In this document: positions 9,380 to 57,630 of the stretch, in pieces
How positions within the stretch are numbered: position 1 is the first letter of the stretch
How the letters are laid out: each line of letters opens with the position of its first letter
Assembly: GCA_964016885.1 (NCBI GenBank)
Contig: OZ024761.1
Location: 14,694,001 to 14,758,000 of the forward strand
From: Eledone cirrhosa
Taxonomy: Eukaryota
Direction: 5' to 3'
Length of the DNA: 64,000 nucleotides
The notes under the pieces: generated by a model
What the model saw: the letters and a program-made list of their open reading frames with translations, nothing else
Databases searched by the model: none
What the model was told of the DNA's origin: nothing
Program-made: the position numbers and the translations under genes

Positions 9380-9560
9380 AACGAAGGAAATGTGGTAAGG
9401 AACCAGGTGGACCATAACGCACCAAAGTACTCAATACTTAGGGTAGTAGAGTGGGTAATAGGAAGGAGTAGGACCCCGACGGCTGAGCTCAAGCCGTTTC
9501 GACGGCTAATTCTGGACGTCGAAACGGCTTGAGCTCAGCCGTCGGGGTCCTACTCGTTCC
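9380..9560. mobile_element. Family-A asymmetric palindromic element in (TA)n (inverted PLE pseudo-LTR)
   Basis: Long arm aacgaagg...gtttcgac, short inverted arm gtcgaaac...gttcc; (TA)n on both sides; seven copies in the window. Confidence 0.8.
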
Positions 9561-9596
9561 TATATATATATATATATATATATATATATATATATA

Positions 9597-10349
9597 TACT
9601 ATAGAGTAAAGCATGTCCAGAGAATTATTTGATAATATATATACATCATCTCTACTCCCAATCAGCATAATTAACCACACAAAAAATCAATTAGACCAGA
9701 CTATAAGAATAAAAGGCATCTATGAAGAAACAGTAAATAAATACGCCATCGTGGCGTCTTCGCGTGCAACCTCTATAGAATATTTACTCAACATTTCAAC
9801 AGCACGTGGAAACTAATTAAATACACGGTCAACCATACATAATTAGGTAAAAATTAATGTTAGAAATGCTTATATACAAATATATACAAATATATATTAT
9901 CAAATAATTCTCTTGACATGCTTTACTCTATAGTATTTCGCTCTGATTAATTTATTAATTCTCCATTGAGCCACACCGTGAAAAGTTGCAAAAACACATA
10001 TATACCTGTGACTTTGTTTAATTGGTGTATGTGTAAATATTTACATAATAGTATAAAGAAATTTATAACCCCACTATCCGGGAGCTTCCAACAGAAATGG
10101 TCGCATTCTTTAAGGGTATGTCAATATTTATTTATAAAACTGCTCTATATTATATTTTATCTGATGAAAGCACACCATAATTTAACTTGGTGTCCTTGAA
10201 ATATGTATAATGAAATAAATATGGTTTTATAAATATAGTTTCCATTTATTAATATATCGTATTTTTACTCCAATAATTTGTTGAGTGCTTTATATCAGTT
10301 ATAAAAATATTTGCTTGTTGTATCCCAACAATTTAAATAGAACTTCTAC
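9597..10349 (+). mobile_element. Family-B Penelope-like remnant: inverted 5' piece plus pseudo-LTR with HHR
   Basis: 9597-9645 is the reverse complement of ~9890-9935; HHR at 10153-10217; ends in (TA)n; homologous to 13608 and 48434. Confidence 0.75.
10153..10217 (+). ncRNA. Minimal type I hammerhead ribozyme
   Basis: tattttat CTGATGA aagcacacca...tggtgtcctt GAAA tatgta TA atgaaata: stems I and II pair, near-palindromic stem III. Confidence 0.8.
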
Positions 10350-10518
10350 ATATATATATATATATATATATATATATATATGTGTGTGTGTGTGTATTTG
10401 TGTGTGCGTGTGTGTAACAGCTGATTTAACATAAACGTGTTATTTTCTCAAGAAATAATTCCGTTTCTTCGCTGTCTGTCTCTTCTCTATCTTTCTCTAT
10501 CTTCTTCTTTTTCTCATT

Positions 10519-10575
10519 CTATCTTCTGATGAAGGACTACAGTGATATGTGAGTTGGTCCGAAATGTAAAGGGTA
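10519..10575 (+). ncRNA. Decayed minimal hammerhead-like motif
   Basis: tatctt CTGATGA a ggact...ggtcc GAAA tg TA aaggg; stem I imperfect. Confidence 0.45.
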
Positions 10576-10912
10576 AATTTTTCTTAATTCCGTTTTCATT
10601 TCTTTTTTTTTTTTTTGGTGACTTCCCATTTGTCCGTTTTCACTTTTGATAAATTCCATTATTTTCAAAAATGTTATTGTATTTTACGAGTAAATTTCAA
10701 TAAATTGTACTGTATGTATGTGTGAATGTATGTACGGACAGACAGACTGACCCGCAGACTGACATACAATACTTCTAGAGTACTTTTTGTTTTCAACATG
10801 GCGGAACCCACCTCCTATTCAGGTCTGAATACAGCAGATGGGAAGAAAAGTATGGATGGGAAGAGAATGGAAGTGAGAAAGAGACACAGTGGAAAATCGA
10901 CCCCAAAACGAG

Positions 10913-11118
10913 ACTGGTATTTTTTTTTTATCGACCTGGAATAGATGAAAGGCAAAGTTGACCTCGGCGGGATTTGAACTCAGAATAGCAAGGGCCGTAA
11001 CTCTATGCGTCAAAGCATGGCGTCCGACCCTCTTCCGATACTGCCAATTCACCGCCCAAAATAAAGTACCATTAATGCACTGTGGTAATTGCTGGCCTTG
11101 TGCCAAAAAGTAGAAATC
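10913..11118 (-). mobile_element. SINE family 1 (minus) followed by an inverted tail segment
   Basis: gatgaaaggcaaagttgacctcggcgggatttgaactcag...ccgcc, then plus-orientation aaaataaagtacc...gccttgtgccaaaaagtagaaa. Confidence 0.8.
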
Positions 11119-53568: not shown

Positions 53569-53770
53569 GGAACGAGTAGGACCCCGACGGCTGAGCTCAA
53601 GCCGTTTCGACGGCTAATTCTGGACTAAAATAGTCCAGAATTAGCCGTCGAAACGGCTTGAGCTTAGCCGTCGGGGTCCTACTCGTTCCTATTACCCACT
53701 CTACTACCCTAAGTATTGAGTACTTTGGTGCGTTATGATCCATCTGGTTCCGTACCACATTTCCTTCGTT
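53569..53770. mobile_element. Family-A palindromic element (longest centre)
   Basis: Centre ttctggacta-aaa-tagtccagaa. Confidence 0.85.
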
Positions 53771-55748
53771 ATATACATATATATTAGAAATTGAGGGTTT
53801 TTTTACAAAATGAAAAATAACCGAGGTGTCCTACACGTGTGAAAGTATAAAAAAAAAAAAAGATAAAAAGATGAAATCGAAAATGCAACTGGAGTCTTAT
53901 TTAAATATATATATATATATTTATTTGGTTCCTTTACCGGTTTCGCAGTTCTTCTGCTTTTCAAAAATAGGTCGCTGTTGTGCTCTGGTTACATATGTCG
54001 AATTTGGAGGATGGGTGGTCCACGTTTTATTTGCTGAATTTGGAGGGTGAGTATGGTTTGGTTTGGCAGGAGTCATAGGTACAGGCTGGCATTCTCTTTA
54101 GGGTGTTTGTTGAGGGTTAGTAGACTGTTTGGAACAATAACCGTCTTATTTACCAGTAACACCACCACCACCACCACCAGTAACATCACTATTACCACCA
54201 CCAACAGTAACAACAACAGCAACAACACCAACACTACCACCAAAAGCAACAACAACATCAGTAACACCACCACCACCAACACCAACACCACCACCAACAA
54301 CAACACCAACACCACCACCAACAACAACAACAACACCACCACCAACACCACCACCAACAAAAACAACACCAACACCACCACCAACACCACCACCAACACC
54401 CCTACCAACAACAACACCAACACCCCCACCACCACTAACAACAACAACAACAACAACAATACAAATGAATAATTAAGTTAAACATGAGATCGATAAAGGT
54501 TGAATTTATATTAAATTTTTTTTCCAATCGAAAATATTTGATACGGTTGGTTAAGTCATCATGACGTCATTAAATGGAGGCCATATTGGATTAGAGAGGA
54601 GGGGGAGGGGGGATAAAAAGTGAGTAATTAGTGAAAGTGGGGGGTTGTGCGTATATGTGGGGCGGAGGAGGGCGTAAGAGGAACCTCACACCACCACTCT
54701 TCCGCTTTCTCCAAATATTTTCCTTATTGGTTTTTTTTTTCTTACGTCATAATCGTTGTAGTGGCCATCATCATCACCATCATCACCATCACCATCATCA
54801 CCATCATCACCATCATCACCATCACCATCATCACCATCATCATCATCATCACCACTAACCATCATCATCATCATCATCGCCATTACCATCACCATCATCA
54901 TCATCATAATCATCACCATCATCATTATCAACATCGTCGTCACAGCCAGCTGTAGACAGCTGATGACTATGGTGATGATGTTACTGTGTGTATGTATATA
55001 TGTGTGTGCGTGTGTGTGTGTGTGTGTAAGTGCGTATGTGTATATGTATGTGTGTGTGAGTGTGTATATGAGTGTGTGAGTGAGTGTGTGTGTGAGTGTG
55101 TGCATGTGAGTGTGTGTGTGTGTGTGAATGTGTATGTGTATGTATATGTGTGTGTGTGGGGGGTGTTCGTGTGTGAGTGGGTGTTCGTGTGAGTGTGTGT
55201 GCGTGTATGTGTATGTGTGTGTGAGTGAGTGTGCGTGTGAGTGTGTGTGTATGTGTATGTGTGTATATGTATGTGTGTGTGAGTGAGTGTGTGTGTGAGG
55301 GTGTGTGTATGTATATGTGAGTGTGTGTGCGTATGTGTGAGTGTGTGTGCGTATGTGTGAGTGTGTATATGTATGTGTGTGTGTGTGTTTGTGTGTAAAT
55401 CTCAGGAGTCACAACAATACCTGTTTAAACATCCCCAGTTCTCGGTTGACTGATTCAGTGACGTCATAGAATGTTTTCACTGTGAATGTATCTATTTTCT
55501 TTCTTTTGTTTTCGCTGCTGCTGCTGTTGTTTTTGTTGTTGTTTACTCAAACAAGGAAGAGCCAGTACTCTTGCACCATTTTACAGGGCCTCTGTTACGG
55601 GTGGGGAGTGAGGAAAGGGTAAGAGAAGATAACTACAAACAGGAGACCTACCCAGTATGAATGCTTGCAATACTAAAGTTGGCTCTACTCAAAGTAATTT
55701 ATACACGGCCATTCCATTTTTTATTTTCACTGTTCATTAGAAATATGA

Positions 55749-55932
55749 TAATTGTTTCTACTTTAGGCACAAGGCCAGCAATTACCCAGTGCATTACTGG
55801 TACTTTATTTTATCAACCCCGTAAGGATGAAAGGCAAAGTCAACCTCGGCGGGATTTGAACTCAGATCGTAAAGGGACGTAACTATGCTGGAAAACATGG
55901 CGTCCGACCTTCTACCGATACTGCCAATCCAC
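55749..55932 (-). mobile_element. SINE family 1
   Basis: Near-identical to 17601-17790. Confidence 0.9.
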
Positions 55933-56362
55933 TGGTTTCTTATATAGGCACAAGGCCAGCATAATTTGGGGGAGGGGGAAGTCGATTAGATTGTGGCGGA
56001 GGGGAGGGGGTTAGTGGTGGTGGCGCTGATGGTGGTGGTGCTGCTGCTGGTGGTGGTTGTGGTGGTGCTGGTGGTGGTTGTGATGATGACAATATGATGA
56101 TGATCATGATTAGATTATAGTTATGGTTACATTAACGATGATGATGATGAAAATGGTTTCGATGATGGTGATAATGATAATGATGATGATGATGAAGGTT
56201 GCGATGATGATGATGATGATGATGATGATGTATCTGTATTTAGTGGGTGGTGGTGGTGGGGAGATGTCAGCTGAAATAATTAATTGATAATGACGAAAAG
56301 GAATATTACTGATACACGAACCAACCAACCGAACGTTGCATCTGTCTGTTTGTCTCTTGGCT

Positions 56363-57360
56363 GTATATATATATATATATATATATATATATATATATAT
56401 ATATATATATATATGTATATATATATATATATGTGTGTATATATGTGTATATATATATGTATATATGTATATATATATATATATATATATATATATGTGT
56501 ATATATATATGTATATATGTATATATATATATATATATATATATATATATATATATATATATATATATATATATATATATATGTGTGTATATATATATGT
56601 ATATATGTATATATATATATATATATATATATATATATATATATGTGTATATATATATGTATATATGTATATATATATATATATATATATATATATATAT
56701 GTGTGTGTGTATATATGTGTATATATATATATGTATATATGTATATATATATATGTATATATGTATATATATATATATATATATGTATGTATATATATAT
56801 ATATGTATGTATATATATGTATATGTATGTATATATATATATATGTATGTATATATACGTATATATGTATGTATATATATATATGTATATATATATATAT
56901 GTATATATATATATATGTATATATATATATGTATATATGTATATATATATATGTATATATGTATATATATATGTATATATGTATATATATATATGTATAT
57001 ATGTATATATATATATATGTATATATATATGTATATATGTATATATATATATGTATATATGTATATATATATATATGTATGTATATATATATATGTATGT
57101 ATATATATATATATGTATGTATATATATATTTATATGTATATATATATGTATGTATATATGTATATATATATATATGTATATATGTATATATATATATAT
57201 GTATGTATATATATATGTATATATATATATATTTATATATATATAATATATATCTATATACATATATTAATATATATATATATATATATATATAATATGT
57301 ATATATATATATATATATATATATATATATATATATATATATATATGTATATGTGTGTAT
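56363..57360. repeat. ~1-kb (TA)n/(TATG) microsatellite
   Basis: Visible. Confidence 0.95.
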
Positions 57361-57486
57361 AACAACGGTAATATTTATATATGTATGTATGTATCTATGT
57401 ATATGTGAGTGTAATAACAATATCAATATTATATATATGTTTATGTGAGTCTCCTCTCCCCCTCTCTCTCTCTATATATATATATA

Positions 57487-57630
57487 GGAAAAAGTATGAC
57501 CCCGACGGCAGAGCTCAAGCCGTTTCGACGGCTATTTCTAGACTTTTCCTATTACCCACTTTACTACCCTAAGTATTTAGTACTCTGGTGCGTTATGTTC
57601 CATCTGGTTCCTTACCACAATTCCTTCGTT
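57487..57630. mobile_element. Diverged family-A element with internal deletion
   Basis: Same outer ends (ggaa... and ...ttccttcgtt); the inner part of the long arm is missing. Confidence 0.75.

Follow-up and report, generated by a model that had tools for sequence, protein, structure and literature searches.

Penelope-like elements (PLEs) are known to leave insertions with an inverted 5′-truncated copy, a tail of 30–40 bp at one end only and (TA)n targeting (PMC8557442). In that source, (TA)n is listed for 25 of the 27 families of the Hydra clade, and Hydra and Naiad families from octopuses are also included. Palindromes were described at the inverted junctions, and self-priming was proposed for them (PMC3846280). 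For the Poseidon element PAc of Anolis, analyzed in vitro, two internal reverse transcription (RT) start sites bound the tail, both strands are cut and extended, a dimer is predicted, and insertion still proceeds with hammerhead ribozyme mutants (PMC11167929). A pair of internal start sites and the extension of both strands were demonstrated by Frangieh 2024. In PMC8557442, the open questions named for PLE transposition include how tandem and inverted structures arise and why microsatellites are preferred, and the late transposition steps were left unvalidated in PMC11167929. Here, 64,000 nucleotides of the Eledone cirrhosa genome (GCA_964016885.1, contig OZ024761.1, positions 14,694,001 to 14,758,000 of the forward strand; hereafter the window) were analyzed for a family of short TA-flanked palindromes, designated family A. 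The microsatellite load and the appearance of the short interspersed nuclear elements in the window likewise point to an octopus as the likely host. The palindrome architecture itself is already published. Family A is probably undescribed, and it may already carry a name in a repeat library such as Repbase or Dfam.

Family A resembles the insertions of endonuclease-containing PLEs with an inverted pseudo-long terminal repeat and a tail (PMC8557442, PMC3846280) in its head-to-head inverted 5′-truncated copy, extension at one end, palindromic junction and microsatellite target. Unlike these, its insert is ~180 bp and includes no open reading frame (ORF), the tail is 80 nt instead of 30–40, the junctions cluster in ~20 nt, and the palindromic form seems to be dominant. 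With the Hydra clade (PMC8557442) it shares the (TA)n target and a GAA-AC...GU-H arrangement ~100 nt from the 3′ end, and Penelope-13_HM is listed there with an inverted 5′ copy; canonical hammerheads are called universal in this clade, whereas family A has no ribozyme core. Further features of the clade are a C-terminal endonuclease without CCHH, a CxCx5C linker and the placement in RT phylogeny, and family A has no ORF. Neither visual comparison nor exact-word searching matched family A to the 3′ ends of Hydra-1_Obim, Naiad_Obim or Naiad_Ovul. The likeness to PAc (PMC11167929) is in the tail bounded by two internal RT starts, the extension of both strands, the AT-rich target and the dispensable ribozyme. 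PAc, however, belongs to another clade and its starts occur without RNA–DNA homology, whereas both ends of family A are located at TA; a palindromic product is not known to have been reconstituted in that assay. Short, non-coding, trans-mobilized units similar to PLE 3′ ends are known as non-LTR retrozymes (bioRxiv 10.64898/2026.07.22.740005) and MRC1/Chlamys-N (PMC8557442, PMC9977147), and family A is like them in these features. They are monomers or head-to-tail arrays, in contrast to the head-to-head family A, and an intact type I hammerhead is part of the definition of retrozymes, which places the core-less family A outside them. Neither family A nor the tail motif reported below, nor any head-to-head non-autonomous unit without a core, was found described in the open-licence literature, and the terms "palindrom" and "hammerhead" are absent from the main text of PMC13282606.

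With moderate confidence, the palindromes are read here as the shortest insertions made by a PLE that targets TA and probably belongs to the Hydra clade, formed by twin priming on a short RNA. Dependence on PLEs as such is highly probable. Family A is likely a non-autonomous, PLE-dependent family lacking the ribozyme core, and it was likely made by twin priming. The fixed TA-flanked ends, the one-sided tail, the clustered and variable junctions, the shared motif with its spacing, and the absence of the core are directly seen, whereas the enzyme, its template and the sequence of steps are inferred. The template would be a short and likely non-coding RNA of ~145–150 nt, used in trans by a PLE protein. 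The enzyme would nick both strands of a (TA)n run and bind a conserved motif in the tail; the first cDNA would start at the long end and the second at a TA 7–8 nt upstream of the motif, and the two would enter opposite strands of the TA break. Both cDNAs would end 3–22 nt upstream of GAAA, at the RNA 5′ end or a hairpin there, and would be joined head to head with 0–6 nt of microhomology. A short non-autonomous RNA is favored because the stop window is tight and single arms share 5′ ends.

Fixed ends and a shared tail motif

All seven loci proposed by a first-pass annotation of the window (palindromes at 9380, 20721, 37497, 49785 and 53569, a deleted copy at 57487 and a single arm at 38476) were located, with small corrections needed. 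An eighth, older and diverged arm at ~4925–4982, with 85% identity over 52 nt, had been overlooked, and the total is eight family A loci in 64 kb (Table 1). The five intact two-armed palindromes are 180–201 bp long, and one deleted copy and one single arm accompany them. The outer ends are common to the two-armed copies as annotated: GGAA at the start and TCCTTCGT at the end were found in 6/6, oriented alike. TA runs abut all 12 ends of these six copies, again as claimed; the runs are perfect and 5–55 nt long, and TA runs of at least 8 nt constitute 8.3% of the window as background. They mask any target duplication at family A. The single arm at 38476 terminates in TA, followed by (CA)n. The short arm halts exactly where the element goes on as TATTACC, as originally described, and the 80-nt tail between the short end and the long end is found at one end only in 6/6 two-armed copies. 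These tails deviate from the majority sequence at 0–6 of 80 nt.

Four of the 23 listed sequencing runs, including a restriction site-associated DNA (RAD) library (X21) and a run labeled as another organism (X5), were compared with positions 53490–53850, as reads or Logan contigs, using the copy 53569..53769 as the reference. In X21, 25,849 of 12,467,656 reads aligned to this reference, and TA forms the loose read ends at each of the two outer termini (3,967 and 3,115 reads). The short end of the older subfamily is likewise TA-flanked (1,124 reads). Thus, the ends of family A are fixed beyond the window. The X21 reads stop at two AATT sites, most likely the restriction cut, and because AATT lies inside the centre, they give no genome-wide census of centres. 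From run X13, 0 contigs matched, which is not evidence on expression. Exact-pattern scans detected 0 loci in metagenome contigs and 0 in prokaryote genomes. The copy number would be in the order of 100,000 when extrapolated from eight loci per 64 kb, the read depths not being copy numbers.

An inverted-repeat scan of the window returned 13 rows, which include five family A copies and three other TA-flanked lopsided palindromes (42858, 43350 and 48438), hereafter comparators. The motif RYTC-(inner stem)-GAGT-RC in the tail is common to family A, the comparators and the Hydra-type relic at 18015. A descriptor, with its letters and spacing taken from six non-A tails, matches 13 places: seven non-A sites (the six training tails and a near-identical second copy of one) and six of the seven family A tails. 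It matches nothing else in the window, and the family A tail at 57487 fails. By chance, 0.68 matches are expected in each shuffled non-repeat window, and shuffling of the arm gave a match in 92 of 20,000 cases. A variant with an obligatory inner stem gave 13 matches, two of them likely by chance, versus a null of 0.93. MAFFT misaligned one or two of the six tails, and the tail alignment is so no basis for a covariance model. In four families, the short arm ends at a TA that precedes the motif by 7–8 nt: 8 nt in family A, 7 nt in both palindromes with complete hammerheads, and ~7 nt in the remaining family. At 12 of 13 sites, the motif is followed 57–90 nt later by (TA)n or (CT)n. This fixed spacing of 7–8 nt to a shared motif suggests that protein binding may set the start site. 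By eye, three of the six new Hydra consensi in PMC8557442 clearly have the motif, in which G-C takes the place of A-U; one other has a near match and another a partial one.

Being short, very abundant, palindromic and TA-flanked, family A could be taken for a miniature inverted-repeat transposable element (MITE) or a TA-targeting foldback DNA transposon. MITEs have terminal inverted repeats at their two outer ends. In family A, the two termini show no such inverted relationship, and one arm stops 80 nt inside. Variable centres, and a tail motif and layout common to hammerhead- and endonuclease-bearing elements, also speak against a DNA transposon, and this origin is very improbable.

Variable centres and single arms

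Measured from TTTC to GAAA, the centres of the five intact copies are 20, 20, 26, 27 and 41 nt long. The annotation that centres vary is correct in that four types are present in these five copies, but not all of them differ, as 9380 and 20721 share one junction. The junctions are located at or near small palindromes, and all 12 young or intact arms stop inside a 20-nt window. Arms within one copy differ at 0–3 of 43 nt. Since the arms differ in this way and contigs of run X1 span the centre, an assembly artefact is unlikely as the source of the palindromes. The X1 Logan contigs do so with 1–11 gap letters.

A few master palindromes could have been retrocopied as whole units. In that case, they would be transcribed with their (UA)n flanks, primed once at the long end by the PLE enzyme, copied through the hairpin and joined by TA homology, and the centres would vary by later deletion. 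The junction common to 9380 and 20721 fits such copying, as do three variants common to both arms of 49786, which no other window copy has in both its arms. In addition, each of the shorter centres could be derived from the 41-nt centre by deletion, and contigs that differ at 11–17 other letters cross a centre within 3–4 nt of the longest. Yet the two copies with the same centre have no private variant in common, the first event would still have to be twin-primed or folded back, and the same short-end spacing occurs in four unrelated families, with single arms that use the short end alone. Whole-unit retrocopying is therefore considered unlikely, though it is the most serious of the alternatives.

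Complete type I hammerheads were recognized by a strict scan in two of the three comparators, 42858 and 48438. The single arms of the latter family, at 10073–10349 and 13607–13795, have the same 5′ end, suggestive of a defined non-autonomous RNA of ~280 nt. The arm 13607–13795, flanked by TA at either side, terminates at the short site; thus, the short site primes without a fold-back. This bears on the proposal that the long-end cDNA folds onto itself at a micro-palindrome close to the 5′ end of the RNA and serves as its own template, and that the far TA flank captures it at the TAT of the element. Self-priming was suggested for palindromic junctions of PLEs (PMC3846280), and small palindromes at or near the junctions would permit it. 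The near-identity of arms within a copy (0–3/43 in family A, 0/188 in 42858) is also expected from self-copying, and the relic 18015..18595 includes a 48-nt inverted duplication (18015–18121) at its 5′ truncation point inside the endonuclease ORF, without a TA flank, which resembles a fold-back junction. Fold-back, however, leaves unexplained the single sense arms that end at the short site and the constant spacing of 7–8 nt, other TA dinucleotides being available. It is improbable as the general origin of family A.

Hammerhead-like half and endonuclease relics

The 3′ half of a hammerhead had been annotated in each arm. The pattern was found, but the stem quoted for it is not identical in each arm, and common variants break its top pair. 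GAAA with a 6-bp stem and UH, a pattern chosen after it had been seen, occurs in 7 of 3000 arm shuffles on either strand. The loop contains a palindromic hexamer, as described for animal type I hammerheads (PMC4209133). CUGANGA had been reported as missing, and CTGANGA is indeed absent from both strands of 6/6 two-armed copies and from the sense strand around the single arm. An Rfam search gave 0 matches at the gathering score and no hammerhead on family A; 119 weak matches in 4400–21000 are mostly hairpin and TA noise, and none of them is a hammerhead on family A. The canonical type I hammerhead near the 3′ end, a feature of the Hydra clade, was not found in family A. In the old arm 4899..4982, a natural stem is present upstream, and position 4899 bears a candidate CUGAUGA with one mismatch, which is within chance expectation. 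From its sequence, the GAAA/stem/UC motif is likely a ribozyme remnant. The label "hammerhead stem II" for the inversion point is thus likely to hold in an ancestral sense only, and not for a working ribozyme, as the core is lacking in the copies and, within ~55 nt of GAAA, in a longer contig form.

This longer form continues upstream in 39 contigs of X1 and one contig (depth 23) of X5, and its upstream letters make a natural upstream stem. No CTGANGA is present within ~55 nt of GAAA (30 letters shown and the aligned part), and the longer copies expected to run through CUGANGA into an RT/GIY-YIG ORF were not recovered. Few sequences extend past the centre: the summed contig word depth, a crude measure, drops at 53630 in both runs (77,719 versus ~4.8 million on the arm in X1; 26 versus 573 in X5). 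The unit 37373–37478 is hammerhead-like, with ~66 nt from core to GAAA by eye; a more distant core in the parent of family A is therefore possible. This unit ends in the same TA run as the copy 37497, and three PLE-type inserts cluster within 37370–37850. An initial by-eye reading of 4733–4780 as a second hammerhead was unsupported.

A HMMER search with the 15408 ORF gave 35 proteins, and after three repeat-driven ones were dropped, a profile was built from 32. It recognized endonuclease fragments at ~15460–15750 (E 4e-22, the seed) and 18064–18300 (E 1.2e-18). By eye, both match the Hydra-clade endonuclease in the supplement of PMC8557442. The relic 15460–16292 also has a weak Rfam hammerhead match at 16224–16264 (19 bits). 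There is no overall similarity between family A and the 3′ ends of these two Hydra relics, 466/500 and 409/500 shuffles being equally good. The shared tail motif links family A indirectly to the endonuclease-bearing relic at 18015. A Naiad link via a shared 8-mer was dropped, as such a word is expected by chance between two ends of 120–150 nt.

Upstream of the old arm, positions 4543–4772 align weakly to the endonuclease profile, in the right order on the plus strand. By protein-level frameshift alignment, 5 of 300 shuffles reach its score, and by a codon-decay method, 1 of 400. A Pfam search of this region was blank, and a single-frame HMM and tblastn also missed it. A word-index protein search was blank for this relic and for a clear endonuclease fragment alike, and is thus insensitive. 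This borderline candidate for an endonuclease remnant upstream of an old family A arm is suggestive only. Of the mechanism put forward in the first-pass annotation, PLE dependence, TA targeting and two fixed priming positions agree with the present results. A single RNA molecule as the template of both cDNAs and TA microhomology as the cause of priming are hypothetical parts of that mechanism.

The template could instead be the full-length RNA of an autonomous Hydra-type element, on which both cDNAs stall at a hairpin upstream of GAAA, and the copies would be ordinary heavy 5′ truncations. The relic 4543–4982, which may join an endonuclease to an arm, and the longer non-palindromic forms (39 contigs in X1, one in X5) are compatible with it, and a median of 128 bp was reported for new Chlamys insertions (PMC9977147). 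Against such stalling, the 12 young or intact arms all stop in a 20-nt window, the older-subfamily contigs reach TA ~20 nt upstream of GAAA (consensus agreement 0.51), and two single arms of a sister family have one 5′ end in common. A full-length template is rather improbable, slightly more so than fold-back.

Table 1. Family A, comparator palindromes and Hydra-type relics in the window
Feature	Position	Strand	Remarks
Possible decayed Hydra-type GIY-YIG endonuclease, borderline	4543..4772	+	Upstream of old arm; 25.5 bits
Old non-palindromic family A arm	4899..4982	+	Ends near short end; diverged; arm itself ~4925–4982
Family A palindrome	9381..9560	-	180 bp; 20-nt centre; same junction as 20721
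Second Hydra-type relic	15460–16292		Endonuclease split by a short interspersed nuclear element, then (CT)n(TA)n
Hydra-type PLE 3′ end relic	18015..18595	+	Inverted junction, endonuclease C-terminus, canonical hammerhead, tail motif, (CT)n(TA)n
Family A palindrome	20721..20900	+	180 bp; 20-nt centre; arms differ at 3/43 nt
Family A palindrome	37497..37683	+	187 bp; 27-nt centre
Family A single long arm, older subfamily	38476..38609	-	5′ end 12 nt before GAAA
Comparator palindrome	42858..43322	+	188-nt arms (0 differences); complete hammerhead per arm; tail motif 7 nt after short end; TA-flanked
Comparator palindrome, third family	43350..43521	+	Junction beside CTGATGA core; tail motif on minus arm
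Comparator palindrome, second family	48438..48878	+	Hammerhead and tail motif; single arms at 10073–10349 and 13607–13795
Family A palindrome	49786..49971	-	186 bp; 26-nt centre
Family A palindrome	53569..53769	+	201 bp; longest centre (41 nt)
GAAA + stem + UC, shaped like 3′ half of type I hammerhead	53650..53672	+	Without CUGANGA
One-sided tail	53690..53769	+	80 nt, short end to long end
Tail motif RYTC-(inner stem)-GAGT-RC	53698..53724	+	8 nt after short end; predicted hairpin
Family A deleted copy	57487..57629	+	143 bp; without mirrored part of long arm

Several other repeats were observed in the window. Hammerhead-complete short units in TA arrays are also present at 37716–37850(-) and 33587–33790(-), and a relaxed scan gave more type I hammerhead-like motifs at 49193(-), 39222(-) and 10526(+). 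Positions 38243–38432 are a perfect 190-nt palindrome centred on a TA run; a third, partial copy of it at 38610–38669 directly joins the single arm of family A, as the result of local rearrangement. Directly after the old family A arm, a MITE-like insert at 4994–5290 has an apparent 8-bp duplication and is presumably of the hAT type, as a candidate only. A 335-nt element with 44-nt terminal inverted repeats (9599–9933), likely a DNA transposon derivative, adjoins the copy 9380. Finally, ~3 kb of a 42-nt tandem repeat at 60774–63828, open in several frames (Thr-rich), is probably a minisatellite.

Twin priming weighed, and its meaning

Several observations weigh against twin priming on the RNA of a Hydra-type PLE. 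No intact parent ORF linked to family A was found, and 13 of 246 window tiles outscore 4543–4772 against the endonuclease profile, of which five are true Hydra tiles and most others are of low complexity. The tail motif was spotted while family A was being compared with other elements, which makes its test not fully blind, and the training site 33507 is possibly a chance match. Its predicted hairpin is no better than in shuffles (z 0.1 to -1.7) and appears in the best fold for three of six short pieces. In three of the six Hydra consensi the motif is unclear or absent, being unseen in Hydra-1_Obim, and GAGTGCT, its 3′ half, is also present in apparent Naiad untranslated regions among the matches listed; the clade is therefore not fixed. 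No empty (TA)n allele was seen among the joints shown in the read and contig comparison. The identical centre of 9380 and 20721 and the arm variants shared within 49786 fit whole-unit copying equally well. Taken with these points, the link of family A to PLEs is good, and the Hydra clade is only likely.

A broader proposal is tentative and rather doubtful as a whole. A tail RNA element, conserved from the Hydra PLEs of cnidarians and a sea cucumber to the Eledone genome, may be the cis-signal that places the two RT start sites, and a ribozyme-dead parasite of 150 nt with only this signal may have been inserted in the order of 100,000 times as twin-primed palindromes.

The window supplies four families with one geometry, a minimal candidate template of 150 nt and a candidate binding motif, which could be mutated in the existing in vitro assay. 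Family A is a natural support for the dispensable ribozyme. If eight loci per 64 kb are typical, many of the perfect hairpins in TA arrays would come from family A, likely misfiled as a MITE or an unknown repeat. If the broader proposal is true, family A would document in nature, on a massive scale, the way in which inverted ends are made by Penelope elements.

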